The notes beneath the pieces are model-generated. The model was not told the origin of the DNA and did not search any database. It worked only from the letters and a program-made list of their open reading frames with translations. DNA of 64,000 nucleotides from an uncultured Gemmatimonadota bacterium (lineage in GTDB: Bacteria; JAAXHH01). Positions 7,177 to 41,838 of the stretch are shown piece after piece. Both the position numbers and the translations under genes were made by a program. Every line of letters begins with the position of its first letter. The first letter of the stretch is position 1. The stretch spans positions 288,001-352,000 of the forward strand of contig OX638340.1 in assembly GCA_951812955.1 (NCBI GenBank), read 5' to 3'.

Positions 7177-7236
7177 TACCGTTATGCCAGGCAAAATACC
7201 GTTATGCCAGGCAAAATACCGTATTATCAGGCAAAC
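7177..7236. repeat. 3 x 20-bp tandem direct repeat (ataccgttatgccaggcaaa x2 plus a degenerate third copy ataccgtattatcaggcaaa) in the polA 5' region
   Basis: Read directly from the sequence. It ends about 80 bp upstream of the polA ATG (7318). Confidence 0.85.
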
Positions 7237-7317
7237 AAGCTATAACAACAACGGCCGTGGAAGGTGCGGTTTGCACCCGTCGCGGACCGGTTCCCACGAA
7301 GCCGGAGCTGTGAACCT

Positions 7318-10080
7318 ATGACCGAGTCGCAGAAGACCCTCTTTCTCCTGGATGGCATGGCCCTGGCCTACCGCGGTCATTTCGGCCTGATCCGCAACCC
7401 GAGGATGACCTCGACGGGCATGAACGTTTCCATGGTGTTCGCCATCGCCAATACCATCCTGGGCATTTTGAATAAGAACAAACCCACCCACATCGCCGCG
7501 GTGTTCGACACGCCCGAGCCCACTCATCGGCACGAACAGTATCCCGAGTACAAGGCGCAGCGGGACGCCATGCCCGAGGACCTGAGCATCGCCCTGCCCT
7601 ACCTGTTCCGGTTGATCGAGGGATTCAATATCCCCGTGATCCGCGTGCCCGGCTGGGAGGCCGACGACGTGATCGGCACCCTCGCGAAACAGGCCGACGA
7701 AGCGGGGTATACTACCTTCATGGTCACGCCGGACAAGGACTATGCGCAACTCGTCTCGGAGCAGTCCTTCATCTGCAAGCCCGGGAACACCGGGGACAAC
7801 TTCGAAACCATGGGCGTGGACGACGTGCTGGAGAAATGGGGGATCGAGCGCATCGACCAGGTAATCGACATGCTTGGCCTGATGGGCGACGCCAGCGACA
7901 ATGTGCCCGGCGTACCGGGAGTCGGCGAGAAGACCGCGCAGAAGCTCATCGCACAGTTCGGTTCCGTGGAGAATCTGCTTGATAACACGGAACAGTTGAA
8001 GGGCAAGCAGAAAGAGCGGATCGAGGAAAACCGGGATATTGCCCTGTTATCGAAGAGTCTCGTCACCATCGAACGGAACGTCCCGCTCGAGGTCACGCCG
8101 GATTCGTTCACCGTGAAAGACAGGTGCGATGAAGACCTGAAGAAACTGTTTGTCGAACTGGAGTTCAATACCCTGGGCAAGCGGCTATTCGGCGACGACT
8201 TCTCGGCGGCGCCAAGGTTGACCGTCGCCGGCAGCCAGGAAGACCTGTTCTCCGATGACCAGTTGAAGACGATTGCGGACGTGGAACACGATTACCGGTG
8301 CGTCGATAGCCCCGAATCCCGCGCCGCGCTCATCGAAGCACTGTCCCGTGCCTCTTCTTTCTGCTTCGACATGGAGACGACCAGCCTGGATCCCAAGACC
8401 TGTGAGATCCTCGGCTTTGCCTTCGCGATCGAGCCCCACACCGGATTCTACGTGCCCATGCCGGACGGACGGGAGGATGTACTGCGGGTCGCAGACGAAT
8501 TCCAATTCCTCTTCGACGATACCGGCAAGGAACTCATCGGGCACAACATCAAGTTCGATCTGTCCGTGCTCCGGTGGCACGGGATAACCGTCTCCTGCCG
8601 CATCTTCGACACCATGCTGGCGGCCTACGTGACCGTGCCGGACCTGCGGAGGACCATGGACTATCTGTCGCAGGCCCTCCTGGGCTACACGCCGATCTCC
8701 ATCACCACCCTCATCGGCGAGAAGGGCGAAGAGCAGGGCACGCTCAAGGATGCGCCGCTGGAGAAAGTCGTCGAATACGCGGCGGAAGACGCGGATGTCA
8801 CGCTGCAGCTAGCGGCATTGCTGCGGCCCCGGATCGGCGAGATGAACCAGGATACGGTCTTCACCGACATCGAGTGTCCCCTGGTGCCCGCCCTGGTGGA
8901 AATGGAACACGAAGGCGTGCAGATGGACGTGGGGCAGTTGGAGCACCTTTCCAGTCTGCTGGACGAAGAGATACAGCGGTCCTCGGACCGGATCACCGAA
9001 CTGGCAGGGGAACCCGTCGATTTCAATTCGGCAAAGCAGCTTGGTCACATCCTCTTCGACAAGCTGCAGATCGATCCAAACGCCAAGCGCACAGCCAAGA
9101 CCGGGCAGTATTCGACGGCGGAAGCCGTGCTCCGCAGACTGGCGCCCAAGCACGAAATCGTGGAGCAGATCCTTCATTACCGGATGTGTACCAAGCTCAA
9201 TTCCGTGTACGTGAGCCAACTGCCCCATTCCGTATTCCAGCAAACCGGTCGGGTACATACCTCCTATGAACAGGCCGTGATCGCCACCGGCCGGATCCAG
9301 TCCCACGGACCCAACCTGCAGACCATTCCGGTCCGCACGGAGATGGGCCGCCAGATCCGAAAGGCCTTCGTGCCCCGGGACGACGACTTTTTCCTGATGG
9401 CCGCGGACTATTCCCAGATCGAACTGCGCATCGCGGCCGAACTCAGCCGGGACGAAGGCATGATGGAGACCTTCATTCAGAAAGAGGACATCCACTCCGC
9501 TACGGCCATGAAAATCTATGACGTGGATCCTGACGGGGTGACCGACGAGATGCGCAGGCGCGCCAAGACCGTCAATTTCGGCATCATCTACGGCATCTCC
9601 GCCTTCGGGCTGGCCGAACGCCTCAACATCCCGAGGGGACAGGGCCAGGAATTGATCGACCAGTATTTCGCGAAGTATCCCGGCACGCGCAAGTACATGG
9701 ACGAAACGATCAAATTCGCGGAAGAGAACGGTTTCGTCGAGACCATGACAGGCCGGCGTCGGTACCTGCGTGACATTAATTCACGCAACAACACGACCAA
9801 GCGCGCCGAGGAGCGCGTCGCCATCAACTCCCGCATCCAGGGCACGGCGGCCGATCTGATCAAGCTGGCCATGACCCGGATCCACGAAGAGTTGAAAAAG
9901 CGGGAATGCAGGACCCGCATGCTGCTGCAGGTGCATGATGAACTCGTATTCGACCTGCATAAATCGGAAGAAGAGACCCTGCCCGGGCTGATCGAGGAGT
10001 GCATGCGGGGCGCACTGCCCATGACCGTGCCCATCGAGGTGGAGATCGGGATCGGCGCGAACTGGTTGGAAGCGCACTAG
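7318..10080 (+). CDS. polA: DNA polymerase I
   Basis: It has a 5'-3' exonuclease N-terminus (LFLLDGMALAYRGHF), a 3'-5' exo/Klenow region and polymerase motifs (RRRAKTVNFGIIYG, LLQVHDELVFD). The ORF track begins at GTG 7264, but ATG 7318 with an upstream GGAG is preferred. Confidence 0.95.
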   Translation: MTESQKTLFLLDGMALAYRGHFGLIRNPRMTSTGMNVSMVFAIANTILGILNKNKPTHIAAVFDTPEPTHRHEQYPEYKAQRDAMPEDLSIALPYLFRLIEGFNIPVIRVPGWEADDVIGTLAKQADEAGYTTFMVTPDKDYAQLVSEQSFICKPGNTGDNFETMGVDDVLEKWGIERIDQVIDMLGLMGDASDNVPGVPGVGEKTAQKLIAQFGSVENLLDNTEQLKGKQKERIEENRDIALLSKSLVTIERNVPLEVTPDSFTVKDRCDEDLKKLFVELEFNTLGKRLFGDDFSAAPRLTVAGSQEDLFSDDQLKTIADVEHDYRCVDSPESRAALIEALSRASSFCFDMETTSLDPKTCEILGFAFAIEPHTGFYVPMPDGREDVLRVADEFQFLFDDTGKELIGHNIKFDLSVLRWHGITVSCRIFDTMLAAYVTVPDLRRTMDYLSQALLGYTPISITTLIGEKGEEQGTLKDAPLEKVVEYAAEDADVTLQLAALLRPRIGEMNQDTVFTDIECPLVPALVEMEHEGVQMDVGQLEHLSSLLDEEIQRSSDRITELAGEPVDFNSAKQLGHILFDKLQIDPNAKRTAKTGQYSTAEAVLRRLAPKHEIVEQILHYRMCTKLNSVYVSQLPHSVFQQTGRVHTSYEQAVIATGRIQSHGPNLQTIPVRTEMGRQIRKAFVPRDDDFFLMAADYSQIELRIAAELSRDEGMMETFIQKEDIHSATAMKIYDVDPDGVTDEMRRRAKTVNFGIIYGISAFGLAERLNIPRGQGQELIDQYFAKYPGTRKYMDETIKFAEENGFVETMTGRRRYLRDINSRNNTTKRAEERVAINSRIQGTAADLIKLAMTRIHEELKKRECRTRMLLQVHDELVFDLHKSEEETLPGLIEECMRGALPMTVPIEVEIGIGANWLEAH

Positions 10081-10091
10081 CAAGCCGGCCG

Positions 10092-10185
10092 TAACTGGAA
10101 GATGGACATTGTCTGGAAGATTGATAGTTAACTGGAAGATGGACAGCGATCTGGAGATTCTGATCGCAGGCGGCCTGGAAGACAT
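10092..10185. promoter_or_regulatory. Cluster of five CTGGA(A)GA(T) motifs including a duplicated 17-mer taactggaagatggaca (10092-10108 and 10129-10145). It lies upstream of the Rieske-fusion operon and is a putative regulator-binding array.
   Basis: The direct repeats were read from the sequence between the polA stop (10080) and the ATG at 10222. Confidence 0.4.
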
Positions 10186-10221
10186 CAGCGAAAATCACAC
10201 AAACAGAAAGGCAAGGATTCC

Positions 10222-12012
10222 ATGAGCTCAGGAAACGGCTGGATCCGGGTCGGAACTACGACCGACATAGCGCCCGGGGAATCCCGCGCCGTTAGAATCA
10301 GCGAGGGCCGCAGCGTTGCCCTCTTCAACGTCAACGGCCGGATACATGCTACCGACAACCAATGTCCCCACATGGGGTTTCCACTGACCCGCGGCGTGGT
10401 GAAGGACGGCATCCTGACGTGCGACTGGCATGGCCGCAGTTTCGATCTGGAAGGCGGCGGCTGCTTCAATTACGAATGCGACGACCTGGAGACGTACCCC
10501 GTCGACATTCGAGGAGATGAACTGTGGGTGCAGGCCGGGGACGCCACCTACAAGCGGCGGGACCAGCACCTGCAACTGCTCTGGGAGGGCCTGCTGAGCG
10601 GGGACTCGTGGACGATTTCGAAGGCCACTGCCCTCCTTCTGTCCGGTGGTGTTTCAGAACACGACATCGTGCAGTTGATCTTGCGCCACCTGGGCCGTCA
10701 CGTCGCGTCGGAACGGGACGCGGGCGGCGGCGGCGATGTCGTTTCACTCCTGGTCTCCGGTCTTGAAGTCGGCAAAAGGTTTGACGGAGAAGACCGGCTG
10801 ATGGCGTTGTCGCTGGCCGGCCGCGCAGCGTCGGGTAGGGCGTCGGAAAGGCTCGAGGTCATTACGCTGCCCCCTCCCGTCCGCTGGGATCAGATAGACG
10901 ACTGGGTACGCATGTTTTCCCGAAACATGCAGGATTTCCGTATCGAACGGTGTTTGCACACGGCCTGCGAGAACGGCCACCAGGACCATATCTTCAAACT
11001 GTTGTTCGAGTGTGCGGTGGCGCCGTACTTCCTCGGATTTTCCCGAAACGTGGCCAGCCTGGGTGATCTCGCAAGGGTGGTGGATACCTTCGGATGGGGC
11101 GAGGCGTCCGAACTGGTCTGCAACCTCGGCGCAAAGATGACGGGCCGAGGGCGCGACGAGCCGGAGCGGTTTCACCGGGATGCCGTCCGGCTGCTCACCG
11201 AACTCGCGCCTGAACTGGAATCACATGATTACGAAGGGAACACGCGCACGGAATACGACGAGAACGCCCTCGTGGACGCCCTGTTGAGCGTCGATATCGA
11301 GCGGTCTTTCGAAGCCGTGACACGGGCCCTGCGGGACGGCGTGGCGATCGAGCGTCTTATCACGACCTTCGTGCTGCTCGCCGCCGACCGCATGGCGCGT
11401 ACGCCCGTGAACGTCGACGCGGGGTGGGGACCGCTGTCCACCGAGTTCAACCTGGCGGCTTCCCTGCGACATGTCCACGCATACGGTGGGCCCGCTGCAG
11501 CGGCGAAGGGCCTGTACCATGCGGCCTGGCAGATTTTCGACAACCGATGGATCAATATCCCCGCACGGTCGCTCGACGAACCCCTTCCCGCCCATCGAAC
11601 GGACACACCGGACGCGGCAGCCGCTTCGGATCTCATTGTCCATTCCATCAAGTCGCTGGATATCCACGGGGTGGGCGATCAGGTGGTGGGTTACCTCAAC
11701 AGCGGATTCGACGGGTCGGACCTGCTCAAGGAAGTGGGACGGGCGATCCTGTGGGACGATACCAACATGGAGCTCCTTCCCACACTGCGCGTCGCGTTCA
11801 ACGAATGGGAAGGTTCAGGGGGTGGCGCAGGCGGCGGAGACGCAAGCGGGGGTGGCGCAGGTGGAAAGGGCCATCCGTCCCGGTATCAGCTCCTGGTGGG
11901 ACTGGTGCGCTACGCCACGGATGTGCGATTGAACAAGAACAGCATGGCCTCCATCAACACGGCCATGCGATTTTCTGAAGGCCGGACGACCGTAGAGGTG
12001 TTCGACGAATAA
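10222..12012 (+). CDS. Rieske [2Fe-2S] domain protein fused to a ~470-aa uncharacterised C-terminal domain (paralog A)
   Basis: It has Rieske ligand motifs CPHMG...CDWHG in the first 100 aa. No signal peptide is present. The C-terminal domain has no motif I recognise. It shares long collinear similarity with the next gene. Confidence 0.8.
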   Translation: MSSGNGWIRVGTTTDIAPGESRAVRISEGRSVALFNVNGRIHATDNQCPHMGFPLTRGVVKDGILTCDWHGRSFDLEGGGCFNYECDDLETYPVDIRGDELWVQAGDATYKRRDQHLQLLWEGLLSGDSWTISKATALLLSGGVSEHDIVQLILRHLGRHVASERDAGGGGDVVSLLVSGLEVGKRFDGEDRLMALSLAGRAASGRASERLEVITLPPPVRWDQIDDWVRMFSRNMQDFRIERCLHTACENGHQDHIFKLLFECAVAPYFLGFSRNVASLGDLARVVDTFGWGEASELVCNLGAKMTGRGRDEPERFHRDAVRLLTELAPELESHDYEGNTRTEYDENALVDALLSVDIERSFEAVTRALRDGVAIERLITTFVLLAADRMARTPVNVDAGWGPLSTEFNLAASLRHVHAYGGPAAAAKGLYHAAWQIFDNRWINIPARSLDEPLPAHRTDTPDAAAASDLIVHSIKSLDIHGVGDQVVGYLNSGFDGSDLLKEVGRAILWDDTNMELLPTLRVAFNEWEGSGGGAGGGDASGGGAGGKGHPSRYQLLVGLVRYATDVRLNKNSMASINTAMRFSEGRTTVEVFDE

Positions 12013-13814: not shown

Positions 13815-15122
13815 ATGGGCATGGACACCGATCATTCTGGCAAGCGTCTTTACGAATGCTATCATCAAGACCCCGACGAGGCCGACCGGATTCTGTTCGG
13901 ACGCCGTACTCACCCGGACCGTCGCGGATTCCTTAAGAACGCGGGCCTGGCGGCCATGGGCGTGCTGGTCGGCGCCGCGATACCCTTTCATCGCAACGTC
14001 CCTGCCCATTTCATTCCGGTCGTGCTCGCCGCAGAGAACACCATTCAGGGCAAGGACGGCCTGACTGTCCTCAACGATCGCCCCATGTGCGCGGAAACGC
14101 CGCCACACCTCCTCGACGACGCCATAACACCCACCGCAAGACACTTCGTCCGCAATAACGGATTGATGCCGGAAGACCTGGACGCATCGCGCTGGAAACT
14201 GGCGATCGACGGACTGGTCGACAGTCCGTTGATACTCACCCTCGAGGATCTTGAAGGCCGGTTCGAGGTCGTCACCCGGGCGTTGACCCTGGAATGCGCG
14301 GGAAACGGCCGGGCATTCTTCGACCCGAAGACGAATGGCGAACAGTGGACCTACGGTGCCGTTGCCTGCTCGGAATGGACGGGAGTGCGGTTTTCCGACG
14401 TACTGACGGCCGCCGGAATGAAGCGCGAAGCCGTCTACACCGCGCACTACGGCGCCGATACCCACCTGTCCGGTGTGGAGGCCGGACTTCCCATCTCCCG
14501 CGGCGTACCGATCGAAAAGGCCATGGATGGACACAGCCTCATCGCCTTCGCACAGAACGGGCGGCCGATCCACCCGACGAACGGCGGCCCATTGCGGCTG
14601 ATCATACCGGGATGGCCCGGGTCTTGTTCCCAGAAATGGTTGACCCGCATTGAGATTCGGGACCAGGTACACGACGGACCCAAGATGACCGGCTCGTCCT
14701 ATCGGTTGCCGAGTCGAAGGATCGAACCCGGCGAGGCCGTGGACGAAAAAGACTTCCAAATCATAGAAAGCATGCCGGTAAAGTCGCTCATCACCCACCC
14801 GGCGACGGGGCACAGATCGAATGACAGATCAGTGGAAGTACGGGGACATGCGTGGACGGGTGAGGGACGCGTCACCGCGGTTGATCTTTCGATCGACTTC
14901 GGGTCAACCTGGAAGCGTGCGTCGCTGGAGGAACCGGTCAACGCCTTCGCCTGGCAGAACTGGCGCGCTTCGTTCTCGTTTCCACAGGCGGGGTATTACG
15001 AGGTTTGGGCGAGAGCCACCGACTCTCTGGGCGTCAGCCAGCCCCACGCCATCGCGTGGAATCCGGGTGGCTACCTAAACAACGCCATGCACCGCGTCGC
15101 GGTGTACGTGGAATCTGAATAG
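13815..15122 (+). CDS. Sulfite oxidase-family molybdopterin oxidoreductase (Oxidored_molyb plus Mo-co dimerisation domains) with a Tat signal peptide
   Basis: It has a twin-arginine motif RRGFLKNAGLAAMGVLVGAA and the conserved Mo-ligand cysteine in LTLECAGNGR. It is 435 aa, typical SorA/SO size. It starts 27 bp after paralog B. Confidence 0.8.
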   Translation: MGMDTDHSGKRLYECYHQDPDEADRILFGRRTHPDRRGFLKNAGLAAMGVLVGAAIPFHRNVPAHFIPVVLAAENTIQGKDGLTVLNDRPMCAETPPHLLDDAITPTARHFVRNNGLMPEDLDASRWKLAIDGLVDSPLILTLEDLEGRFEVVTRALTLECAGNGRAFFDPKTNGEQWTYGAVACSEWTGVRFSDVLTAAGMKREAVYTAHYGADTHLSGVEAGLPISRGVPIEKAMDGHSLIAFAQNGRPIHPTNGGPLRLIIPGWPGSCSQKWLTRIEIRDQVHDGPKMTGSSYRLPSRRIEPGEAVDEKDFQIIESMPVKSLITHPATGHRSNDRSVEVRGHAWTGEGRVTAVDLSIDFGSTWKRASLEEPVNAFAWQNWRASFSFPQAGYYEVWARATDSLGVSQPHAIAWNPGGYLNNAMHRVAVYVESE

Positions 15123-15208
15123 ACCTGAACGATTCCTACCAATTCGAAAATGCCTTTGTAGTTACGACTATTCAATAAAGGGATTTGGATAGAAGCATTG
15201 AGTTACTA

Positions 15209-15238
15209 TTGACAATGTATCAATTTTGATACACATTG
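15209..15238 (+). promoter_or_regulatory. Putative promoter/operator of the toxin-antitoxin pair: TTGACA followed by an imperfect inverted repeat caatgtatca-N-tgatacacattg
   Basis: It lies in an AT-rich stretch immediately upstream of ATG 15249. Palindromic operators are typical for HigA/XRE antitoxins. Confidence 0.35.
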
Positions 15239-15248
15239 AAACTACGAC

Positions 15249-15593
15249 ATGCACATATTGCGCGTCGTTTTTTACACGACTAAAACAGGTCGCGAACCGG
15301 TTCGTGACTGGATGGCGTCTCTAACCCGTGACGAAAAGAAGATTGTAGGAGTGGATTTAAAAACAGTCCAGTTCGGCTGGCCTTTGGGCATGCCACAAGT
15401 GCGCAAACTGGATCGTGGGATTTGGGAAGTAAGGTCAGCACTTAAAGGGCGCATAGCACGAGTGCTGTTCACAGTTCAAGGTAACAGCATCGTTTTATTA
15501 CACGGGTTCATCAAGAAGGTTCGTAAGACGCCCTATCAGGATCTACGTCTCGCAAAAACACGATTGGCTACGTTGGGAGATACGTCAGGATGA
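15249..15593 (+). CDS. Type II toxin, RelE/ParE superfamily (gp49-like / HigB-like addiction-module killer protein)
   Basis: 114 aa. It has the motif pattern ...WEVRS..KGRIARVLFTVQGNSIVLLHGFIKK..KTPYQDLRLAKTRL typical of gp49/HigB-like toxins. Local GC is low. It overlaps the next gene by 4 bp. Confidence 0.7.
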   Translation: MHILRVVFYTTKTGREPVRDWMASLTRDEKKIVGVDLKTVQFGWPLGMPQVRKLDRGIWEVRSALKGRIARVLFTVQGNSIVLLHGFIKKVRKTPYQDLRLAKTRLATLGDTSG

Positions 15594-15877
15594 CTTCGGA
15601 TGACCGTCACATTGGAAGCGACTTCGATCTATACCTGAAGGAAGAAGGACTGATTGTAGAAGTTGAAAGAGTCGCGATAAAGCGTGCAGTCGCCTATCAA
15701 GTAGCTCAATTCATGTTGAATCAAGGTCTGAGCAAGACAGAAATGGCCCGGCGCATGCGCACAAGTCGCGCCTCACTGGATCGTCTTCTTGATCCTAACA
15801 ATGGATCTGTCACACTGCAAACCCTGGAACGGGCGGCCGATGCACTGGGACGGCGCTTGCATATCTCGCTGGTTTGA
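15590..15877 (+). CDS. HTH (XRE-family) antitoxin, HigA-like
   Basis: 95 aa with a helix-turn-helix segment (LSKTEMARRMRTSRASLDRLL). It is translationally coupled to the upstream toxin. Confidence 0.65.
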   Translation: MTSDDRHIGSDFDLYLKEEGLIVEVERVAIKRAVAYQVAQFMLNQGLSKTEMARRMRTSRASLDRLLDPNNGSVTLQTLERAADALGRRLHISLV

Positions 15878-15984
15878 ACGTGACCTCGAAGGACTTCTGT
15901 AACGCAGTACTGATCTAGTTCACCATCCTGCGAGTACTCAATGTTGTGATCGTCAAATCACTGTGGACGGTTAGTCTCGCCTAC

Positions 15985-16839
15985 CTACACGCTATCCACC
16001 GCGGGGCGCGGCAGATCGGCCCAATGGCCGGTGGGATCGGATCCCTTGACGATCACGCCTTCCTTGTTCCAGTTCAGTTCGGCGCGGACGGAAGCGGCGC
16101 AGAACCTGAGCGTCAGGCCGCAGCGGCGGCGGTCCGACGTGTTGAGTCCCGATCCGTGCAATAGCAGGTCGCTGTGGAGCGAGATCTCTCCCGCCTCAAG
16201 CTCGATATCTACCTCGGTCCCGAACATCCCCACGTCTTCCACGGTCTGGTTGAGCACGTTGTTCTCGGCTTCCTCGCTCAGGTGGTAGGTCAGGTGCCCG
16301 TGGTGATGGGATCCCGCCACGAAGCGCATGCAGGCGTTGCCCGTGTCCGCATCGTCGATGGCCAGCCAGGCGGTCACCGTTTTCGACGGCGAGAGGGGCC
16401 AGAAACTGGCGTCCTGGTGCCAGTTGACGATCTTGCCGTCACCGGGAAGCTTGCAGAAGAAATGGGCGCCCCAGCCCACGACGTCGTCGCCCAGGAGGTC
16501 GCTGATGTAGGCGACGATCCGTGGCTCGTTCATGATATCGTGGACCATGCCCGATTTCAGGTGGGCCGATATGATGGAGTAATTGTGGTCCCCCCGCGCC
16601 ATGACTTTTTCGATCATGCCGTCGAATTCATTCCGTATGTCGCCGATCTCCCCATCCGAGTAGATCCTGAACGGCTTCAAGTAGCCTTGCTCATTGAACG
16701 TGTCGATCTGCGTGCTAGATAACACGGCCGGATGCTCGTTGCGTACCGGGTGGTACTGCAGGTCGCGGGACATGCGGACCAGGTCTTCCGGGGTAGGCAT
16801 CTGCTTGAAACGGGTGTCCTGCAGGGTCGTCTGCGCCAT
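15985..16839 (-). CDS. Phytanoyl-CoA dioxygenase (PhyH) family Fe(II)/2-oxoglutarate oxygenase
   Basis: 284 aa with the HxD iron motif in WHQDASFWP and a PhyH-like C-terminal region (GSHHHGHL). Confidence 0.8.
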   Translation of the reverse strand: MAQTTLQDTRFKQMPTPEDLVRMSRDLQYHPVRNEHPAVLSSTQIDTFNEQGYLKPFRIYSDGEIGDIRNEFDGMIEKVMARGDHNYSIISAHLKSGMVHDIMNEPRIVAYISDLLGDDVVGWGAHFFCKLPGDGKIVNWHQDASFWPLSPSKTVTAWLAIDDADTGNACMRFVAGSHHHGHLTYHLSEEAENNVLNQTVEDVGMFGTEVDIELEAGEISLHSDLLLHGSGLNTSDRRRCGLTLRFCAASVRAELNWNKEGVIVKGSDPTGHWADLPRPAVDSV

Positions 16840-16878: not shown

Positions 16879-18057
16879 TCAGCCCTCGTTTTTTGTCTTC
16901 AGTATGACGTTCTCGGATTCCCTTTCCCATGTTTCGTTGTAGACCAGTGGCCTCGGTCTGCGCGGCGGGTAATCCGGAGGGGGATTATCCGGGTCGTTCA
17001 GCTCCAGGCGGTCGCGGCCCCGGGGCGCTTCGTACCAGTGTTTTTCCCGTTCGGCCGCTTCAATCTCCCTTCGGAGGATGAACTCCGCGTGATCGAAACC
17101 GGAGATCGCCGCGTCCGCCAGAAACACGCGGTGCACCTCGCGGCCGTCCCAGGTTTCCAGGTCCGGCAGGATCACGGGGCCCGTGCAGACCTGAAACTCG
17201 GCGTCTTCTTCGTTAATATTGATCAGATCCACAGGAAACTCAAGGGTAACCTGCATGTTCCGGTCCGCCCGGTCCGCCCGGTCCGCCTGGTCCGCCTGGC
17301 CAGCTTGGACTGTTTGGCTCGCCTGGCCTGCTTGACCCGTTTGACCCGTTTGACCCGCTAGGCCCGGCTGGTCCGGATCATGACAGACAGTCCAGGCGAT
17401 CCTGCCATTCATGAGATCCCGGTTGATCGTCGCGTCCACGACAGCCCGCGCGTCCGTCAGGGTTTCCTCGGAATCATACTGCCTGATATCGATTTCGTGG
17501 GCCTGGAATTGTTTTTCAAGCGGAGTACCCCTGTATTCGGCGGCCTCGTTACTCGGTCTTCGCGATATAGGGATGCTCTGACTTCGGCTAAACGCCATGC
17601 GCCATTCGTCGCTGGGAATCTGAAAGAGGTTTCGGCGGGCGATCGTGTATTCCGTGCGACACGGAGCGCCCAGGTAAATTTCGGTACGGTGTCCCGAGTC
17701 CAGGTCTTCCACGGTACAGGCCGCCTCGAGGTGGAACCGCACCTGGTAGGCCTGTCCCGGCACCCCGACAAAACCGCCCGTATACTTGTAGACCGGATCG
17801 GGTTTCCAGGGCGAGGATTTCCAGTGGAAAGAAGAGCGATGGAAAGCGATCATGGGCCTGGTCTTCGGCTTGGTCTTTGTGGCATTCGCATACCGGGCCA
17901 TCCGGGCTTGAAATGTGCTTCTCTCATTTGTACCGATTTGATGCGGCAATGTCCCAAAATGACCTATTCTACCCATGCAGGCAATACAAAACTGCGTTTC
18001 CGCCCTGCGGACCGCGACCGTGATTTTTGTTGCGAGCGTGGGGTCCGCAGGATACAT
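16879..18057 (-). CDS. Hypothetical protein with a central low-complexity Q/G/A/D/R linker encoded by 9-bp tandem repeats
   Basis: 392-aa ORF. The linker PGLAGQTGQTGQAGQASQTVQAGQADQADRADRADR is encoded by cggtccgcc x4 and ttgacccgt x3 at 17261-17358. It lies 40 bp upstream of the PhyH gene on the same strand. The N-terminal start is uncertain. Confidence 0.5.
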   Translation of the reverse strand: MYPADPTLATKITVAVRRAETQFCIACMGRIGHFGTLPHQIGTNERSTFQARMARYANATKTKPKTRPMIAFHRSSFHWKSSPWKPDPVYKYTGGFVGVPGQAYQVRFHLEAACTVEDLDSGHRTEIYLGAPCRTEYTIARRNLFQIPSDEWRMAFSRSQSIPISRRPSNEAAEYRGTPLEKQFQAHEIDIRQYDSEETLTDARAVVDATINRDLMNGRIAWTVCHDPDQPGLAGQTGQTGQAGQASQTVQAGQADQADRADRADRNMQVTLEFPVDLININEEDAEFQVCTGPVILPDLETWDGREVHRVFLADAAISGFDHAEFILRREIEAAEREKHWYEAPRGRDRLELNDPDNPPPDYPPRRPRPLVYNETWERESENVILKTKNEG

Positions 18058-18080: not shown

Positions 18081-18140
18081 ATGACGGCGCGCAACTCCGG
18101 AAAATGACGGCGCGCAACTCCGGAAAATGACGGCGCGCAG
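18081..18140. repeat. 2.6 x 23-bp tandem repeat (atgacggcgcgcaactccggaaa) in the aceE leader. Each copy forms a mini-ORF MTARNSGK* whose stop overlaps the next copy's ATG (ATGA).
   Basis: Read directly from the sequence. The aceE start context ggaaATGACGca at 18169-18180 resembles a further degenerate copy. Confidence 0.8.
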
Positions 18141-18172: not shown

Positions 18173-20854
<2,682 letters not shown>

Positions 20855-20858
20855 CCGG

Positions 20859-20893
20859 CGTAACGCGTAACTCCGCGTAACGCGTACTCCGCG
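20859..20893. repeat. Imperfect 17-bp tandem repeat (cgtaacgcgtaactccg / cgtaacgcgtactccg) between the convergent aceE and thioredoxin genes
   Basis: Read directly from the sequence. It contains two ACGCGT palindromes. Confidence 0.6.
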
Positions 20894-20911
20894 TCGGCTG
20901 TTCAGGCGTGA

Positions 20912-24359: not shown

Positions 24360-24480
24360 TGTGCCTGCCGCCAAGCAGGATGGCCCTGCCCTGTCGCCCT
24401 GTCATGAGCGGTACGATGTGGTACCGTCCCTGGACCAGTGCGCCTCTGGCGGGCTCCCAGCCTCAGGCAGCTCGCAGGCG

Positions 24481-25890
24481 CTACGATTCCAGCATGAGCT
24501 TGTTAAGTGAATCTTCGGGGACGACCGGGTAGTCTCCGCTGAAGCAGGCCGTACAATACCCCGTCCCTGACTTGCCGTATTCCTTCGCGATTTTTACCAT
24601 GCCCTCGATGGACAGGTAACCCAGGCTGTCCGCACCCAGGTATGTGCGAATCTCATCCACCCGGGTCTGCGAAGCGATGAGCTCGCCCCGGCTCTGCATG
24701 TCGATCCCGTAATAGCACGGGTGGCGGATGGGAGGACTGCTGATCCGTACGTGTACCTCGGAGGCGCCCGCGCTGCGGATGAGTCTTACCAGCTGATTGA
24801 GCGTCGTGCCCCGCACGATGGAATCGTCCACGAGGACCACCCGCCGGTTTCGCAACACGCCCTGGACCGGGTTGTACTTCAGTCTCACCGTGAACTCCCG
24901 CATGGACTGGTCCGGGTCGATAAATGACCTTCCCACGTAGTGATTCCTGATCAGGCCGATTTCGAACCGGATTCCCGAATGCTCTGAGTAGCCCAGCGCG
25001 GCTGTCGTGGCGGAATCGGGCACGGCGATGACGATATCGGCGTTCACGGGGTGCTCCTCCGCCAGCCGGCGGCCGAAACGCCGGCGGAACTTGTCGCTGT
25101 TTTCCCCGAAAACCTTGCTGTCGGGCCGGGCGAAATAAATGTATTCGAAGATGCAGGAGGCAGGTACCGCGCGATCGAAGGGAAAGTAGGACTGGATTCC
25201 GTTCTCGTCGATGACGACCATTTCTCCCGGGTTCACTTCCCTGACGTACTCCGCGTTCATGATGTCGAAGGCGCAGGTTTCCGAAGCGAGCACGTGGGCA
25301 TCCCCGATGCGTCCCAGGCATAGCGGGCGGAATCCGCGGGGATCCCGGACGCCAATGAGTTGCTTCCCGGACAGGAATACGATGGAATAGGCGCCTTCGA
25401 CGTGGCGTAAGGCGTCGGAGATCATGCCGGGCAGATCGGATTCGTTCGATCGCGCGATGAGATGAAGGACGATCTCGCTGTCGGACGAGGTGCGGAAAAT
25501 CGATCCGGACTCTTCCATCGACAGGTGGAGCGCGCCGGTATTGGTAAAATTACCGTTGTGAGCGGTGGCCAACTGTCCGCGCTTGAAGTTGACCATGAAT
25601 GGCTGTGCGTTGTCTACGTTGGATGTGCCGGTGGTGGAATACCGGTTGTGGCCGATGGCGATATGGCCATCAAGATCGGCCACGCGATCGCCGTGCTCAT
25701 AGGCTTCGCTGACCAGTCCCATGGCGCGGTGAGAATCGATATGTTCGCCGTCGGAGACGGCCATGCCGGAGCTTTCCTGGCCGCGGTGCTGGAGGGCGTA
25801 CAGGCCCAGAAAGGTCAGCTTGGCGGCGGCCGGGTCGCCATAAATGCCGAAGACACCGCACTCCTCGCGAATTTCGTCGTCTTCCCACAT
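24481..25890 (-). CDS. purF: Amidophosphoribosyltransferase
   Basis: It has an N-terminal CGVFGIYG glutamine amidotransferase motif and a PRTase domain. Confidence 0.95.
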   Translation of the reverse strand: MWEDDEIREECGVFGIYGDPAAAKLTFLGLYALQHRGQESSGMAVSDGEHIDSHRAMGLVSEAYEHGDRVADLDGHIAIGHNRYSTTGTSNVDNAQPFMVNFKRGQLATAHNGNFTNTGALHLSMEESGSIFRTSSDSEIVLHLIARSNESDLPGMISDALRHVEGAYSIVFLSGKQLIGVRDPRGFRPLCLGRIGDAHVLASETCAFDIMNAEYVREVNPGEMVVIDENGIQSYFPFDRAVPASCIFEYIYFARPDSKVFGENSDKFRRRFGRRLAEEHPVNADIVIAVPDSATTAALGYSEHSGIRFEIGLIRNHYVGRSFIDPDQSMREFTVRLKYNPVQGVLRNRRVVLVDDSIVRGTTLNQLVRLIRSAGASEVHVRISSPPIRHPCYYGIDMQSRGELIASQTRVDEIRTYLGADSLGYLSIEGMVKIAKEYGKSGTGYCTACFSGDYPVVPEDSLNKLMLES

Positions 25891-33796: not shown

Positions 33797-33841
33797 CGGT
33801 TTACTACTGCGATCAGACGACGCCCAGGTTTACTAATATAA

Positions 33842-34849
33842 TCAGGCAACCCCCAACACCTCGCGCGCGGCCTGCGTGGTTTCCCGTACCTGGTCCAGGG
33901 TCCCCATCCCGAACATAGAGGCCGAGACGCCGATCTCATCGAATACGTACTCGAAGGCCTTGTGTCCCAGGTAGCGGCCGCCGGCCATCGGCTTGATGGC
34001 GATGACGGGCTTGGTGGACTGCCTGATGGCGTCGATGGCTACCTCGCGGGTCGGGAACATGAAGGTGCCGGGGGCATTTACGGTGGTCAGGTAGCCGTCG
34101 ACGGGGATGTTCTCGGCCTCGAGCAACGGCAGGGTGACCCCGGCGTGGTGAACGCTCGTGATCACGGTGTCGAACCTTTCCCTCAAAAAGCCGAGGTACT
34201 CCCGGATCAGATCGAAGCGCCCGGTCATCGCGAGCAGGTCGATCTCGGCGCCCGGGTCGGCGACGAGTATATCGCACCCGGCGAAGAAGCCCAGGTATTG
34301 CTCCAGGATTCCATAATCGATCTCGAAACGGGCGGCGTCCGCTTCCGTGTACGGCGGCACGGTCTCCGGCGTGACGATGCCTTCAAAGGTGTCCCCCAGG
34401 TTGTAGCGGATGATGTCGTCGCGGCTGAAGTGGTCACGGAAGGCCTGGCCGGCCAGGCCTTCGTTACGGCCGTAGAAGGTCGAATGGGCGCGATCCGAAT
34501 AGGAGACGATTTCGCCGTCCAGCGTGACCGGGATCAGGATATACGCCACGATGCCCAGTTGCGTGGCGGTCTGTTGCTCGGTTTCCCAGATGGCCTGCAG
34601 ATGCAGCCGGTCGAGTTTGGGCAGCATGTGATCCACCTGGATGGCCGTGATGCCGCCTTCCTCGACGGCGTATCTAAGCACGTCGGCCACCGATTGTACG
34701 CGGCTGAAGGAGCGGAAATTCGCCGCATCCCGCGCCTTGTCCTGGTAGGAACAGCCATCATAGGGATGGATGCCCATGATCAGGCGGGGGACCTCGGCCT
34801 GGCCGATTCGTGTCGTGGGTACGCCGCAGCCTTCCAGATATGTCTTCAT
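33842..34849 (-). CDS. Hypothetical protein (335 aa), function unknown
   Basis: Long ORF with non-biased composition. It is divergent from the SMP-30 gene. I recognise no motif. Confidence 0.5.
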   Translation of the reverse strand: MKTYLEGCGVPTTRIGQAEVPRLIMGIHPYDGCSYQDKARDAANFRSFSRVQSVADVLRYAVEEGGITAIQVDHMLPKLDRLHLQAIWETEQQTATQLGIVAYILIPVTLDGEIVSYSDRAHSTFYGRNEGLAGQAFRDHFSRDDIIRYNLGDTFEGIVTPETVPPYTEADAARFEIDYGILEQYLGFFAGCDILVADPGAEIDLLAMTGRFDLIREYLGFLRERFDTVITSVHHAGVTLPLLEAENIPVDGYLTTVNAPGTFMFPTREVAIDAIRQSTKPVIAIKPMAGGRYLGHKAFEYVFDEIGVSASMFGMGTLDQVRETTQAAREVLGVA

Positions 34850-34965
34850 TGCATCCCGGTCCCGGACTCAGTGATTCATTCCATAGAAACCGAACGTAAC
34901 TACAGACCTAATACTGCTTTGTATATAACTCTTCAGGTTTGGATAATATACACCTTTGAATACCT

Positions 34966-35011
34966 GGTATGCAAGTCCCGGCCGTCTTGGAATACAAGTC
35001 CCGGCCGTCTT
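34966..35011. repeat. 2 x 23-bp tandem direct repeat (ggtatgcaagtcccggccgtctt / ggaatacaagtcccggccgtctt) in the divergent intergenic region
   Basis: Read directly from the sequence. It lies about 170 bp upstream of ATG 35181. Confidence 0.75.
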
Positions 35012-35180
35012 GCCACACACGTTCCCGGAATCCCGTGCCGGCCCCATCGGATTTCCCCCATGTCCCGCCTTGACCCTTGACATCTTTTGGTATATATACT
35101 TGCAATCCCGTCGATACGTCCTTCCCCGGCGGTACCGCACGCGTACATTTCTGTTCTCTGGCAGGTCGATTTCTGCCTTC

Positions 35181-36131: not shown

Positions 36132-37676
36132 ATGGCCTTCGACGTCGTCATTCGCGGCGGTGAGGTGATCGATGGTACAGGGAAGACCGGCCGGTACCGG
36201 GCGGACGTGGGACTGCGGGACGGCCGCGTGGAGGGGATCGGAGACCTGGCGAATGTCGAGGCCGCCCGGACCATCGACGCCGGGGGCCACATCGTCTGCC
36301 CCGGCTTTATCGACGTCCACGTACACTCCGAGAATTCCCTGCTTGGCGGCCGCGACCAGATGGGCGGTCTCCGTCAGGGCGTGACGACCCACTTGCTCGC
36401 GCCGGATGGATTCGGCTGGGCGGGTTTGGCTCCCGAGGATGCCCTGCCCCTATGGCACTACACGCAGTTTGCCTACGGCGAGCCTTTGGAACCGGTCAAT
36501 TGGCCCACCATCGAATCCTACCTGGACCTCTTTCCCGGCCGCTCGCCGGCCAACGTGTATCCGCAGGTTCCGCACTGCGCCGTCCGCGTCAAGGCCATGG
36601 GCTGGGATCCCGGGCCTCCGAGTCCGGACCAGTTGAGAGTCATGGAAACCGAGACCCGTGCGTGGATGGAAGCCGGCGCCGGATGCCTCTGCCTGGGACT
36701 GGACTACCAGCCCAGCGCCAACGCGCCTTTCGAGGAACTGGTGGCGCTGTGCAAGGTGGCCCTGGAATACGACGGGATCTACGCCGCACACCTGAGGTAC
36801 CAGATCCTGGGAAGGGACCGGGCCTGGCAGGAGATCATCGACCTGAATCGCGCAAGCGGCATACCCGTTCATGTATCCCACGAACGCGTCGACGGCATGA
36901 CGGGTCCGATCCTTGAACAGGCGATGAAGGACGGTGTGGACATCACCTTCGAGTCCTATCTCTACCCGGCCGGCATGACGCATATCACGATGCAACTGCC
37001 CATGTGGATCCAGACGGGCAGTCCGGATGAAGTCCTCGAAAAAATGCGCCAGCCGGATACCCGCCGCGAGGCGCTCGAATATCTGAAATCGACGAACCTG
37101 GCTGACAGGCAGTACATCGGATATACGCGATCCGGCAAGTTCGCGGGGATGACCCTGGGCGAGGCCGCGCGGAGCGTGAACAAGTCCAACGAGGAGTTTG
37201 CCTACGACCTTGTGCTCGATGAAGACGGAATACAGACGTTCATCATGTTCTGGCCGGTTCCACAGGAGGAAGTCGACACCGTGTTGAACCGGACGGCGCC
37301 CCATCCCCTCATGATGGTCGCCAGCGACGGCGTCTATGATTGTACCCATCCCCATCCCCGGGGGCAGGGATGTTTCGCCCAGATGCTCAGGAAATTCGTA
37401 AGGGAGCGCGATCTGCTCTCCCTTGAAGAAGCCGTATACAAGATGAGCGGCTTCCCGGCGGAACGTTACCGGTTGAAAGACCGGGGCGTGTTGCGCGAAG
37501 GCGCTCCGGCGGACGTGGTCGTCTTCGATCCTCAGACCGTGGCCGACCGGGCTACCTTTGAAGCGCCGATTCAACCTCCCGACGGCATTCCCCATGTTTT
37601 CGTCAACGGCATTCCGGTTATCGAAGACCACGAGCCCACGAAGCACCGTCCGGGCCAGGTCCTGCGCAGAGGATAG
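36132..37676 (+). CDS. D-aminoacylase (N-acyl-D-amino-acid deacylase) family amidohydrolase
   Basis: 514 aa with HVH metal motif (GFIDVHVHSE) and the family's typical N-terminus FDVVIRGGEVIDGTG. Confidence 0.85.
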   Translation: MAFDVVIRGGEVIDGTGKTGRYRADVGLRDGRVEGIGDLANVEAARTIDAGGHIVCPGFIDVHVHSENSLLGGRDQMGGLRQGVTTHLLAPDGFGWAGLAPEDALPLWHYTQFAYGEPLEPVNWPTIESYLDLFPGRSPANVYPQVPHCAVRVKAMGWDPGPPSPDQLRVMETETRAWMEAGAGCLCLGLDYQPSANAPFEELVALCKVALEYDGIYAAHLRYQILGRDRAWQEIIDLNRASGIPVHVSHERVDGMTGPILEQAMKDGVDITFESYLYPAGMTHITMQLPMWIQTGSPDEVLEKMRQPDTRREALEYLKSTNLADRQYIGYTRSGKFAGMTLGEAARSVNKSNEEFAYDLVLDEDGIQTFIMFWPVPQEEVDTVLNRTAPHPLMMVASDGVYDCTHPHPRGQGCFAQMLRKFVRERDLLSLEEAVYKMSGFPAERYRLKDRGVLREGAPADVVVFDPQTVADRATFEAPIQPPDGIPHVFVNGIPVIEDHEPTKHRPGQVLRRG

Positions 37677-37697
37677 GAAGGGAAGAGTTTCAACTAC

Positions 37698-39500: not shown

Positions 39501-39551
39501 CAGGATCGCCGAATAAAAAGGACCGAGCAGGAAAGAAAGGACCGGTAGTGT

Positions 39552-40304
39552 ATGACGAAGGTGATCGCGGGGGCACGCAACCGTTTCCACGGCGTGGAAG
39601 TTGGTTCCGAAGACCTGCCCGATACACCGGATGGATTCAGGGAGCGCCTGGACCATTCGATCCGGGAGTGGAAGGCGGAGGATCTCCAGGTTGCCTGGTT
39701 CAAGGTTCCACTTTCCCGGGCCTTCCTCATTCCCCCACTGGTGGACGCGGGCGGAGTATTCCATCATAGTACCACCGACTACCTGATGCTGACGCTCCGC
39801 CTGGCCGAAGGCGCCTTCGTGCCGCTGTACGCTACCCATTACATCGGCGCGGGCGGCGTGGTGATCAACGAGAAGGACGAACTGCTCGTGGTCTGCGAAC
39901 GGTTTCGCGGGGGACGGGCGCCGTATTACAAGCTGCCCGGAGGCGCGCTACAGCCGGAGGAACACCTGGCCGAGGGCGTGGTCCGGGAAGTATTCGAGGA
40001 AACGGGCGTGCCGACCAGTTTCGACGGCCTGGTCTGCTTCCGGCACTGGCATGGCTACCGGTACGACAAGTCGGACATCTATTTCGTCTGCCGGTTGAAG
40101 CCGCTGCACCAGATCATCAAAATGCAGGCCACGGAGATCGAAGAGTGTTTCTGGATGCCCGTGGATACTTATATGGGATCTGAAAACGTCAGCCAGTTCA
40201 ACAAGCTCATCGTCAAGGCCGCGGTGGAAAACGAAGGCCTGAAGGAAACATGGGTCGACGGATACGGCGACCCGGACCGGTACGAGTTTTTCATGCCGGA
40301 GTAG
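39552..40304 (+). CDS. NUDIX hydrolase with an N-terminal accessory domain
   Basis: It has the Nudix box GGALQPEEHLAEGVVREVFEETGV. Confidence 0.8.
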   Translation: MTKVIAGARNRFHGVEVGSEDLPDTPDGFRERLDHSIREWKAEDLQVAWFKVPLSRAFLIPPLVDAGGVFHHSTTDYLMLTLRLAEGAFVPLYATHYIGAGGVVINEKDELLVVCERFRGGRAPYYKLPGGALQPEEHLAEGVVREVFEETGVPTSFDGLVCFRHWHGYRYDKSDIYFVCRLKPLHQIIKMQATEIEECFWMPVDTYMGSENVSQFNKLIVKAAVENEGLKETWVDGYGDPDRYEFFMPE

Positions 40305-40376
40305 TTCCGCGGTTTTTGGACCGATTCTAACTGAGGGAATGTCAACCGGTCAACTTATCTCAACGAGGACCAACCC

Positions 40377-41783
40377 ATGGCTAAATCACGCCGGCGAAGG
40401 AAGAAGCGTCCCAATATCGTATTGCTGGGCGTGGATTCCCTTCTGGCCGATCACATGAGCTGTTACGGATACCATCGGCACACAACGCCCCATATCGACC
40501 GGTTCGCCGAGGGCGGCGCGCTGTTCGAGAAGACGTACAGCGCCCATATCCCCACGACAAGCGCCTATGCCTCCATGCTGACCGGCCTGGACGCCTTTGG
40601 CACCCAGGTAGTAGCCCTGCGTCACAAGGGCGGACTCCGGGAGGACGTGCAGACGCTGCCCGAGATCCTGCGGGAGCACGGATATGCGTCCACCTGCGTG
40701 GGTTTTGGGGGAAACCCGTCCTCGCGAGGTTTCGACAAGTACATCGAGTATCCGAGCTGGGGCAGCTGGAACGAGGGGCGCAGTCCCAAGGCGCAGAATC
40801 TGAACGACGTGGCGATTCCGGAGCTGGACCGGCTGGCCAAACGGCGCGGACCTTTCTTCCTTTTTCTGCGCCACATGGATCCTCATGCGCCGTACCTGCC
40901 GCCGGAACCCTACGAACGCATGTTCTATCACGGCGACGAGTGCGATCCGAAAAACAAGTCCATGGATCCCGTCAAGGCGTTCAAACCCTTCTGTGATTTC
41001 TTCGCCGCGTGGATGCCGCCCGACATCACCGACAAAGACTACGTCATAGCCCAGTACGACGGCGCCGTCGCGTACATGGACGCCTGTATCCAGACCATCT
41101 TCAACGCCCTGGAAGCCCACGGTATCATGGACGAAACGATCGTGATCCTCAACGGGGACCACGGCGAGACCCTTTACGACCACGAATGCTGGTTCGATCA
41201 CCACGGACTCTACGATGTGACGCTCCACGTGCCGCTCATCATCCGGTATCCTGGCAGGATCCCCGGGGGTAGCCGCATCAGCGGGTACAACCAGCACAAG
41301 GATCTCGTACCCACCATCATGGATTTGGCCGAAATCGATGCGGAGATCGACTACGACGGGGACAGCCTGATGGCGCTGGTCGACGGCACGGTTTCCTCCT
41401 TCGACAGCGAGTTCTATATCACCGAGTGCACGTGGATGCGCAAGCACGGCTGGCGGACGCCGCAGTGGAAGCTGATGGTCGCCCTCGAGCCGGATTTCCA
41501 CTTCAAGCCGCCGGTCGAGCTGTACAACCTGGTGGAGGACCCGGACGAGAACCGGAACCTGGCCGATGAGCTGCCGGAAGTGGTCAACCTGCTCAAGCGG
41601 CGGATGAACAACTGGATACGGAAACGGGTGAAAGAGACCGGAAAGCGTAATCCCATGCTTACCCAGGGGGACTGGCATGGGCACGAGGGCGTGGGTGCCT
41701 TCAAGACATCGCAGCAGGCCTACGACACGATGCACATCGGCGACCCCAATCAGGCCGCCAGTCTGCAGGCGCGCAGCAGGTAG
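40377..41783 (+). CDS. Sulfatase-fold (alkaline phosphatase superfamily) hydrolase lacking the CxPxR formylglycine motif
   Basis: It has a sulfatase-like N-terminus (PNIVLLGVDSL...TPHIDRFAEGG) and an NGDHGE block. At the nucleophile position it has PTTSAY instead of CTPSR. Confidence 0.7.
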   Translation: MAKSRRRRKKRPNIVLLGVDSLLADHMSCYGYHRHTTPHIDRFAEGGALFEKTYSAHIPTTSAYASMLTGLDAFGTQVVALRHKGGLREDVQTLPEILREHGYASTCVGFGGNPSSRGFDKYIEYPSWGSWNEGRSPKAQNLNDVAIPELDRLAKRRGPFFLFLRHMDPHAPYLPPEPYERMFYHGDECDPKNKSMDPVKAFKPFCDFFAAWMPPDITDKDYVIAQYDGAVAYMDACIQTIFNALEAHGIMDETIVILNGDHGETLYDHECWFDHHGLYDVTLHVPLIIRYPGRIPGGSRISGYNQHKDLVPTIMDLAEIDAEIDYDGDSLMALVDGTVSSFDSEFYITECTWMRKHGWRTPQWKLMVALEPDFHFKPPVELYNLVEDPDENRNLADELPEVVNLLKRRMNNWIRKRVKETGKRNPMLTQGDWHGHEGVGAFKTSQQAYDTMHIGDPNQAASLQARSR

Positions 41784-41838
41784 AGCGCACCGCGCCTCGC
41801 GCAGCAGGTATAGCGCACCGCGCACCGCGCCTCGCGCA
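41771..41838. repeat. ~30-bp tandem duplication spanning the stop codon of the sulfatase-like gene (gcgcagcaggtagagcgcaccgcgcctcgc / gcagcaggtatagcgcaccgcgcaccgcgcctcgcgca)
   Basis: Read directly from the sequence. Confidence 0.6.

Follow-up and report, generated by a model that had tools for sequence, protein, structure and literature searches.

Bacterial minisatellites of the variable number of tandem repeats (VNTR) kind, known from Wolbachia and Ehrlichia ruminantium and used in multiple-locus VNTR analysis (MLVA), consist of head-to-tail units of at least 10 bp, lie mostly between genes, differ between close strains by whole units and are homogenised within each array, a behavior of intergenic repeats that has been described and attributed to slipped-strand mispairing (PMC3287509). 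In the fission yeast Schizosaccharomyces pombe, microhomology-mediated tandem duplications (MTDs) are short and reversible, carry a partial extra copy and are found fixed in natural isolates, with out-of-frame events depleted in genes, which tolerate mainly sizes divisible by three (PMC8639346). We have compared with these systems a set of short tandem arrays in a 64-kb window (the whole stretch analyzed here, positions 288,001 to 352,000 of contig OX638340.1, with features given in window coordinates and arrays named by their first position) from an uncultured Gemmatimonadota bacterium, which is densely coding with a G+C content of 55-62%. These arrays differ from strain to strain by whole units, are specific to the lineage and pass a reading-frame filter, and different arrays have arisen independently at the same gene junctions. 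We consider it probable that they represent the birth and decay of slippage-type tandem duplications filtered by selection, and hence resemble low-copy minisatellites or VNTRs and not a regulatory or mobile system.

The arrays of the window share with the bacterial VNTRs all of the features listed above, with slipped-strand mispairing the presumed cause here; whole-unit strain differences were found at 18081, 34965, 10092 (19 bp, in the relative L086), 17260, 24452 and 41770. They depart from the described VNTRs in several respects: 1) they measure 31-72 bp, with 2-3 copies and periods of 15-29 bp, as compared with mean periods of 58-81 bp in Wolbachia and of 139 bp, with a mean of 4.8 copies, in E. 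ruminantium (PMC3287509); 2) they cover 0.7% of the window's bases vs. 6.3% in E. ruminantium (PMC3287509); 3) several of them include the stop codon of a gene. The likeness to MTDs lies in reversibility, fixation in natural isolates and the tolerance of genes for sizes divisible by three, and may extend to the partial extra copy, but MTDs are eukaryotic events with 5-8 bp of microhomology and inserts of 55-92 bp (PMC8639346), whereas partial copies here span 0-13 bp and the border microhomology at 34965 is weak, among the few ancestral alleles inspected, the unit being bounded in the single-copy allele (L094/L095) by only a 3-of-4 match (CAGG/CTGG).

Position and reading frame of the arrays

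Tandem Repeats Finder (TRF) revealed 14 non-overlapping arrays of score at least 50 in the 64 kb vs. 0.2-0.4 in shuffled versions of the window (n=150), while arrays scoring 30-49 stayed at the chance level of about 10 per shuffle. Eight of the 14 are intergenic or span a spacer, with periods of 17-29 bp and 2-3 copies (2.0-3.3), even though only about 8.6% of the window is non-coding (p=6e-6); the remaining six lie within genes. All in-gene periods (15, 9, 9/18, 24, 15 and 18 bp) are multiples of three (6/6, p=0.0014), as opposed to none of the eight intergenic ones (20, 19, 23, 17, 29, 23, 28 and 25 bp). We surmise that this pattern is the residue of position-blind duplication once selection has purged the events that damage a reading frame. 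Three arrays (33798, 41770 and 42918) hold the last codons of a gene together with its stop codon, four more begin within 22 nt of a stop codon, and a 3' end or stop codon is the site of half of the intergenic arrays; arrays that contain a stop codon are predicted by blind duplication followed by selection and are not predicted of operator sites. The arrays, as called by TRF except where stated, are as follows.

Upstream of genes:
7174-7235, polA leader: 20 bp x 3.1, in the spacer from the amidohydrolase stop (7152) to the polA start (7318)
10092-10155, Rieske leader: 19 bp x 3.3, imperfect (75% identity), from the polA stop (10080) to the first Rieske gene (10222)
18081-18139, aceE leader: 23 bp x 2.6, perfect, in the divergent spacer upstream of aceE (start 18173)
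34965-35012, SMP-30 upstream region: 23 bp x 2.1, in the divergent spacer between a 335-aa gene (start 34849, minus strand) and the SMP-30/gluconolactonase gene

At gene 3' ends and stop codons:
20858-20894, aceE 3' region: 17 bp x 2.2, built of GCGTAAC heptamers, between the convergent aceE and thioredoxin genes
24452-24480, accD-purF spacer: about two degenerate copies of about 17 bp, below the TRF threshold, abutting the purF stop (24481-24483, minus strand)
33798-33855, PCMT 3' end: 29 bp x 2, diverged (75%), from the PCMT stop (33796) into the convergent 335-aa gene
41770-41841, sulfatase stop: 28 bp x 2.2, with the last codons and TAG stop (41781-41783) in copy 1
42918-42972, GFO stop: 25 bp x 2.2, spanning the last codons and TAA stop (42947-42949) of a GFO/IDH/MocA oxidoreductase gene

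Within genes:
11818-11859, plus strand, first Rieske-domain protein: in-frame 15 bp x 2.8, Gly-rich linker (GGGAGGGDASGGGAGG; TRF and translation)
17260-17366, minus strand, hypothetical protein (16879 to about 17859): in-frame 9-bp and 18-bp arrays, (G/D)Q(A/T)/DRA linker
20618-20671, plus strand, inside aceE: weak in-frame 24-bp x 2.2 similarity (74%)
52554-52584, plus strand, SBP_bac_5 solute-binding protein: perfect in-frame 15 bp x 2.1, CLNRT CLNRT (TRF, translation and Pfam)
62715-62761, minus strand, Sel1-repeat protein: perfect in-frame 18 bp x 2.6, VQSDEP VQSDEP VQ (TRF, translation and Pfam)

All six intergenic repeats named in the original prediction, made from the sequence alone, were thus recovered in place. 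Those of the polA leader (given as 3 x 20 bp), aceE leader (23 bp x 2.6), SMP-30 upstream region (23 bp x 2) and aceE 3' region (17 bp x 2) agreed with TRF, whereas the Rieske 17-mer TAACTGGAAGATGGACA, which does occur twice and exactly, belongs to a longer 19-bp array with a degenerate middle copy, and the sulfatase repeat of about 30 bp x 2 has a 28-bp unit. The in-frame 9- and 18-bp repeats are present in one gene (17260-17366) and not in two as proposed. A 15-bp array at 11818 and a 24-bp array at 20618 are likewise in frame, and four similar arrays had been overlooked, at 33798-33855, 42918-42972, 52554-52584 and 62715-62761. The view that the repeat families are mutually unrelated held, in that a search allowing up to 20% mismatch found no unit at any second place in the window. 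A cross-family motif (AATACCGT in 7174 and 42918, ATCAGGCAA in 7174 and 33798) was considered and dropped, as shared 7-9-mers were, by our own estimate, at or below chance.

Pfam confirmed the gene names of the original prediction, namely amidohydrolase, polA, two Rieske-domain proteins, molybdopterin oxidoreductase, aceE (pyruvate dehydrogenase E1), thioredoxin, SMP-30/gluconolactonase, sulfatase and GFO/IDH/MocA oxidoreductase. A search of the window for tRNA and tmRNA genes found none, and an Rfam scan at gathering thresholds gave no matches, so that none of the arrays is a known leader RNA. When eight arrays were folded as single-stranded DNA, the z-scores stayed between -1.8 and +1.8, lending no support to hairpin-driven slippage or structured elements.

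Turnover among relatives

Graded relatives were drawn from public metagenome assemblies, reached via exact-protein look-ups and homologue searches. The polA proteins of the clade carry the NCBI label 'Gemmatimonadetes/Gemmatimonadota bacterium'; the sponges Aplysina aerophoba and Petrosia ficiformis are the sources of L094 (MKWU01) and L095 (LXNJ01), respectively (PMC5099237), and marine metagenome records occur among the more distant relatives.

L160: 97.3% nucleotide identity to the window
L081-L085: about 97% (L085 also given as 98%)
L161-L163, L091, L094: about 95%
L093: about 90%
L086: about 88-90%
L087, L088/L089: 82-88%
L090: polA protein 88% identical to that of the window
L096-L158: 60-86% protein identity

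Among strains at 95-97% identity, five arrays gained or lost whole units, namely 18081 (23 bp), 34965 (23 bp), 17307 (9 bp), 24452 (about 17 bp) and 41770 (14 and 26 bp), as slippage predicts and as the original prediction of local slippage duplication anticipated, while copy number was unchanged within the clade of at least 95% identity at 7174, 10092, 11818 and 20858. About half of the arrays had changed at 3-5% divergence, corresponding by our rough estimate to a rate tens of times the per-site substitution rate, and 7 of about 12 insertions or deletions of at least 5 bp that separate the window from L081/L094 are repeat changes. At greater distance, six arrays have no counterpart in relatives with flanking proteins of 85-92% identity, where the spacers are far shorter or the genes abut or overlap.

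The arrays at gene ends illustrate this turnover. The aceE 3' array, beginning 4 nt past the aceE stop, is identical in L081-L084 and absent from L086, which has a 23-nt spacer, and from L088, where the two convergent stop codons abut (TGATCA), so that the spacer runs 57, 23 and 0 bp across these relatives. The accD-purF array reaches 3.1 copies (TRF score 83) in L081, which has a 16-bp insertion relative to the window. At the sulfatase stop, the 28-bp array is followed by a 7-bp sub-repeat and a 14-bp x 2.1 array (41848-41877; whole region 41770-41877), and L091/L094 carry an extra 14 and 26 bp of the same repeat; the GFO-stop array of these two strains has a 5-bp deletion in copy 2. In L093, an unrelated 16-bp x 2.6 array occupies the sulfatase junction and a different 38-bp x 3.1 array lies just downstream of the GFO gene, and L097/L103 carry a 13-bp array of their own. 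Because the junctions of relatives, whether the same or others, bear different arrays, the tendency to duplicate appears to belong to the lineage and not to particular sites. L093 also harbors a perfect 18-bp x 6.1 array (L093:12133-12242, corresponding to window position ~45755) in a 145-bp gap between its AP_endonuc_2 and HpcH/HpaI genes, where it is called as a 48-aa open reading frame (ORF); the corresponding genes of the window overlap by 4 bp.

Inside genes, the 11818 array is identical in L081/L082, the (G/D)Q(A/T) linker (17260-17366) has 3 additional residues (9 bp) in L081 and is lacking in L086/L089, and the 20618 region has a constant length in L081-L085, its similarity probably not reflecting a recent duplication. 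The 52554 array sits in the N-terminal signal-peptide region of the SBP_bac_5 protein, and the 62715 array forms the linker after the signal peptide of the Sel1 protein, a linker that varies in length and sequence among the three orthologues found (63-67% identity). The C-terminal basic tail of the same Sel1 protein (61020-61250, minus strand) comprises RQQPRSTP(S/N)V-type peptide repeats, which also vary in number between the three orthologues, where insertions reach ~28 residues.

Copy-number differences between strains at several arrays, together with two in-frame arrays in proteins of secreted or surface type (the Sel1 and solute-binding proteins), raise the question of contingency loci, i.e. 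simple-sequence repeats that drive phase variation in host-adapted bacteria, in which rapid and reversible copy change near or within a gene would switch or modulate that gene within a population. Classical contingency tracts have units of 1-8 bp in many copies, whereas the units here are 15-29 bp in 2-3 copies and the sole 9-bp arrays are in frame. Since in-gene periods are all multiples of three, frame switching is impossible, and a shift in promoter spacing finds little room where most intergenic arrays lie at 3' ends or stop codons and no promoter-like site occurs at the three leader arrays scanned. In addition, the three arrays shared with L160 are equal in copy number at 2.7% divergence (13.8 kb aligned, 2 gaps), and the roughly estimated rate, tens of times that of substitution, falls short of the many orders of magnitude expected. 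The strain comparison that the original prediction had called for therefore yields unit changes in five arrays at 95-97% identity and stability of three arrays at 2.7% divergence, which is not contingency-like, and we regard this explanation as very improbable.

The 5'-leader arrays (7174, 10092, 18081 and 34965) call for separate consideration, as they lie upstream of genes with periods of 19-23 bp and could be direct-repeat transcription-factor sites, in which unit number and a spacing of ~20-23 bp (two helical turns) would tune expression. In the polA leader, the first 2.5 copies are perfect (copies 1 and 2 identical) and copy 3 is diverged; three copies are also found in L160 and L161-L163, and the first 9 nt of the unit, AAATACCGT, are unchanged in 9/9 copies across strains of at least 95% identity, an invariant core next to variable positions 10-19. 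The aceE array likewise persists in three lineages, with exactly one 23-bp unit fewer (1.6 diverged copies) in L081-L084 and ~4 diverged copies in L086. The Rieske leader has the same 3.3 copies in L160 and L161 and one 19-bp unit fewer (2.3 copies) in L086.

The conservation expected of orthologous promoters nonetheless fails for polA and Rieske in L087/L088/L090 and for aceE in L088/L089, the arrays being gone from relatives with 85-91% identical flanking proteins. The polA array is a degenerate trace in L086, no repeat is present in L088, and overlapping genes leave L090 with no leader (spacers of 165, 112 and 0 bp); the Rieske array is lacking in L087/L088/L090, with the polA-Rieske spacer shrinking from 141 to 34 bp across these relatives; and L088/L089 have no aceE-leader array. 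Divergence in the polA array (~12%) also exceeds that of the genome on average (~5%). Several further observations speak against transcription-factor sites: 1) the 34965 duplication is exclusive to the window, as L094 and L095 have a single copy there, the indel being exactly 23 bp; 2) no unit recurs at another spacer within the window; 3) no regulator gene lies beside any array, the neighbors encoding enzymes; 4) half of the intergenic arrays occupy 3' ends or stop codons, away from promoters; 5) a sigma-70-type consensus scan at three leader arrays found no promoter-like sites in or near them. Terminator-like sites around the same three arrays were at chance level. An element read by eye downstream of the 34965 array (TTGACC-17-TATATA) failed the rule of the scanning tool and is not used as evidence. 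The 34965 array itself lies upstream of the real SMP-30 start, because the Pfam SGL domain begins only at residue 98 of the long SMP-30 ORF. Thus, the suggestion that arrays were co-opted for regulation finds no support for most of them, and regulation as a general explanation of the leader arrays seems unlikely to us, although the polA array, with its stable three copies and invariant AAATACCGT, and the aceE array, found in three lineages, may have a regulatory role as judged from the sequence comparison.

The array at 33798 is of interest since L094, at 95% identity, has a 5.3-kb insertion at exactly this site, as would be expected if the arrays were footprints of mobile DNA, i.e. target-site duplications, att-site remnants or decayed miniature elements. 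In the window, copy 2 holds the last codons and stop (33842-33844) of the 335-aa gene, and copy 1 is a relic of that gene's end; the array is absent from L095, which has an 18-nt spacer. The L094 insert (L094:11037-16202, at window 33797-33841), lying between the convergent PCMT and 335-aa genes, is a single 1721-aa ORF in which a DEAD/Helicase_C module is joined to a UvrD-type helicase, and may be a defence gene. No recombinase (integrase or transposase) and no flanking copies of the 29-mer were found in or around it, and we rejected a mobile-element origin of the 33798 array on this content.

Variable islands near the arrays, in the window as in relatives, would also fit mobile DNA. An islet (15100-15985), between the Rieske/molybdopterin-oxidoreductase genes and the PhyH gene and variable in L081, L087, L088, L090 and L160 as well, comprises in the window a Gp49/HigB-like toxin (15249-15593) and a helix-turn-helix (HTH) antitoxin (15590-15877), preceded by an inverted repeat at ~15205-15240. 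A 229-bp deletion removes most of the toxin in L081; L087 and L090 have a D12-class methyltransferase and a SacI-like restriction enzyme, with Fic in addition in L087, and L160 has GmrSD, two unknown genes and Fic. The adjoining molybdopterin oxidoreductase (13815-15122), one 435-aa ORF in the window, is in two pieces (271 aa and 88 aa) in L081-L083 and L161, which suggests a pseudogene or frameshift in these 95-97% relatives. For the arrays themselves, the hallmarks of dispersed repeats such as repetitive extragenic palindromic (REP) elements, miniature inverted-repeat transposable elements (MITEs) or target-site duplications were lacking within the window, with no dispersed unit, no terminal inverted repeats or hairpins and no associated recombinase, and fractional third copies with whole-unit gains and losses are unlike target-site duplications. 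We consider a mobile origin of the arrays scarcely probable.

Errors of assembly or sequencing might have produced the arrays or, if not all of them, the copies peculiar to the window: array 18081 has an additional unit and array 34965 a second copy that are both seen in the window only, and the short-read scaffold of L085 breaks at the 20858 array. Against this, at least seven arrays are present in independent assemblies from different samples and technologies, including 20858 in L081-L084, 41770 and 42918 in L091/L094, and 7174 and 10092 in L160-L163, so that they are not artefacts of a single assembly; in addition, relatives hold arrays of the same type of their own, and the in-gene frame filter is a biological and not a technical signature. 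Of the explanations weighed here, we give artefact the least credence. In L085, the run of Ns falls exactly inside the 17-bp array after aceE (window ~20890); assemblers evidently stumble on these repeats, and repeat counts in short-read metagenome-assembled genomes (MAGs) may be too low.

Repeat density

The original prediction had called the density of these repeats unusual for a bacterial chromosome. As background we used a panel of loci from a scan for aceE, one genome per species, which gave no relative closer than 71%. Arrays were counted with the tool's parameters (match 2, mismatch 5, indel 7; overlapping rows merged) and, for comparison with the literature, with published parameters (2/7/7, rows not merged).

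Arrays per 10 kb, tool parameters:
Window: 2.2 (0.94 at score at least 80)
80 panel loci (1.38 Mb, many phyla): 1.1 (0.21 at score at least 80)
L160, L161: 2.2
L081: 1.9
L093: 3.3
L087: 1.8
L086, L088, L090: 0-0.4
63 more distant marine relatives: 0.34 (0.08 at score at least 80)

Rows per 10 kb, published parameters:
Window: 1.88
80-locus panel: 0.86
Close relatives (8 loci): 1.12
More distant marine relatives: 0.20
E. coli K-12: 0.19 (PMC3287509 Table 4)
Wolbachia: 0.5-0.7 (PMC3287509 Table 4)
E. ruminantium: 1.33 (PMC3287509 Table 4)

The window's count density is therefore ~10x the published E. coli value, ~2x that of the 80-locus panel and ~9x that of the more distant marine relatives; E. 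ruminantium was termed the bacterium with the highest tandem-repeat content reported up to then (PMC3287509). Against the panel, a Poisson test gave p=0.014 for all arrays and 0.003 at score at least 80, and non-coding arrays per kb of non-coding DNA numbered at least 1.0 in the window vs. 0.21 in the panel. Nevertheless, 9 of the 53 panel loci of at least 15 kb reached or surpassed the window in overall density, as did 5 for non-coding arrays and 3 for high-scoring ones, and the arrays occupy only 0.7% of the bases. The claim thus holds in part: count density in the window is high, common to the clade of at least 95% identity and within the range of other uncultured bacteria. Most of the densest background loci (L007, L011, L012 and L014, from Acidobacteriota/Vicinamibacterales and Ignavibacteria), with repeat densities at or above that of the window, carry arrays of a different kind, many with periods of 7, 14 or 21 bp (heptamers in up to 11 copies) and many intergenic.

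Proposed origin and biological meaning

We postulate that short segments (9-40 bp) would be duplicated locally in tandem when replication slips, or the template is switched, between short direct repeats lying close together, that unit gain, loss and homogenisation would follow, and that the arrays would afterwards decay by point mutation. Selection would pick the survivors by removing out-of-frame duplications within genes, leaving those in spacers, those at gene 3' ends, whose upstream copy still provides an intact ORF and stop, and in-frame units in low-complexity linkers. Most arrays would be neutral or nearly so and would lengthen spacers that are short or absent in compact relatives. We infer slipped-strand origin from the whole-unit indels together with the pre-existing imperfect direct repeats at the aceE-leader site of L081, and the contrast of perfect copies in the window (18081; copies 1 and 2 of 7174) with diverged copies in relatives points to turnover and homogenisation by unit gain and loss. 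Because the spacers of distant relatives are shorter or absent and gene termini are duplicated, these data suggest that tandem duplications have added new intergenic DNA. The species-level lineage of the window may in addition have a raised duplication rate or weaker purging.

Several observations weigh against this account of slippage, neutrality and a lineage-wide tendency: 1) partial third copies of 9-13 bp exceed typical microhomology and are too long for a one-step microhomology event to explain every array; 2) the raised rate of the lineage would be drawn from ~20-kb samples of few genomes; 3) the extra copies at 18081 and 34965 were seen in the window assembly alone; 4) the three-copy stability and invariant 9-mer of the polA leader at 95% identity or above hint at constraint (post hoc-corrected p about 0.08); 5) copies of the aceE-leader array, in varying number, are still present as far away as the L086 lineage (~90% nucleotide identity). 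We still favor the birth and decay of slippage-type duplications under selection.

As it stands, the significance of the finding is small, the arrays being ordinary low-copy minisatellites, a known kind of feature. They could serve as VNTR-type strain markers for an uncultured sponge-associated lineage, and the graded relatives show clearly how short duplications create and lengthen spacers and how selection on reading frame shapes the survivors. A bolder possibility, which we put forward tentatively and hold to be doubtful, is that this sponge-associated species-level lineage has a heritably raised rate, or reduced purging, of 15-40-bp duplications that build spacers from gene termini, a minority of which (the polA and aceE leaders) are captured as regulatory sites. 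If a raised, lineage-specific rate were true, the repair or replication gene responsible could be sought; the abutting or overlapping gene pairs of compact marine relatives would then have become spacers of 50-170 bp, and such duplication would be a main route for the birth of non-coding DNA after a shift to host-associated life.

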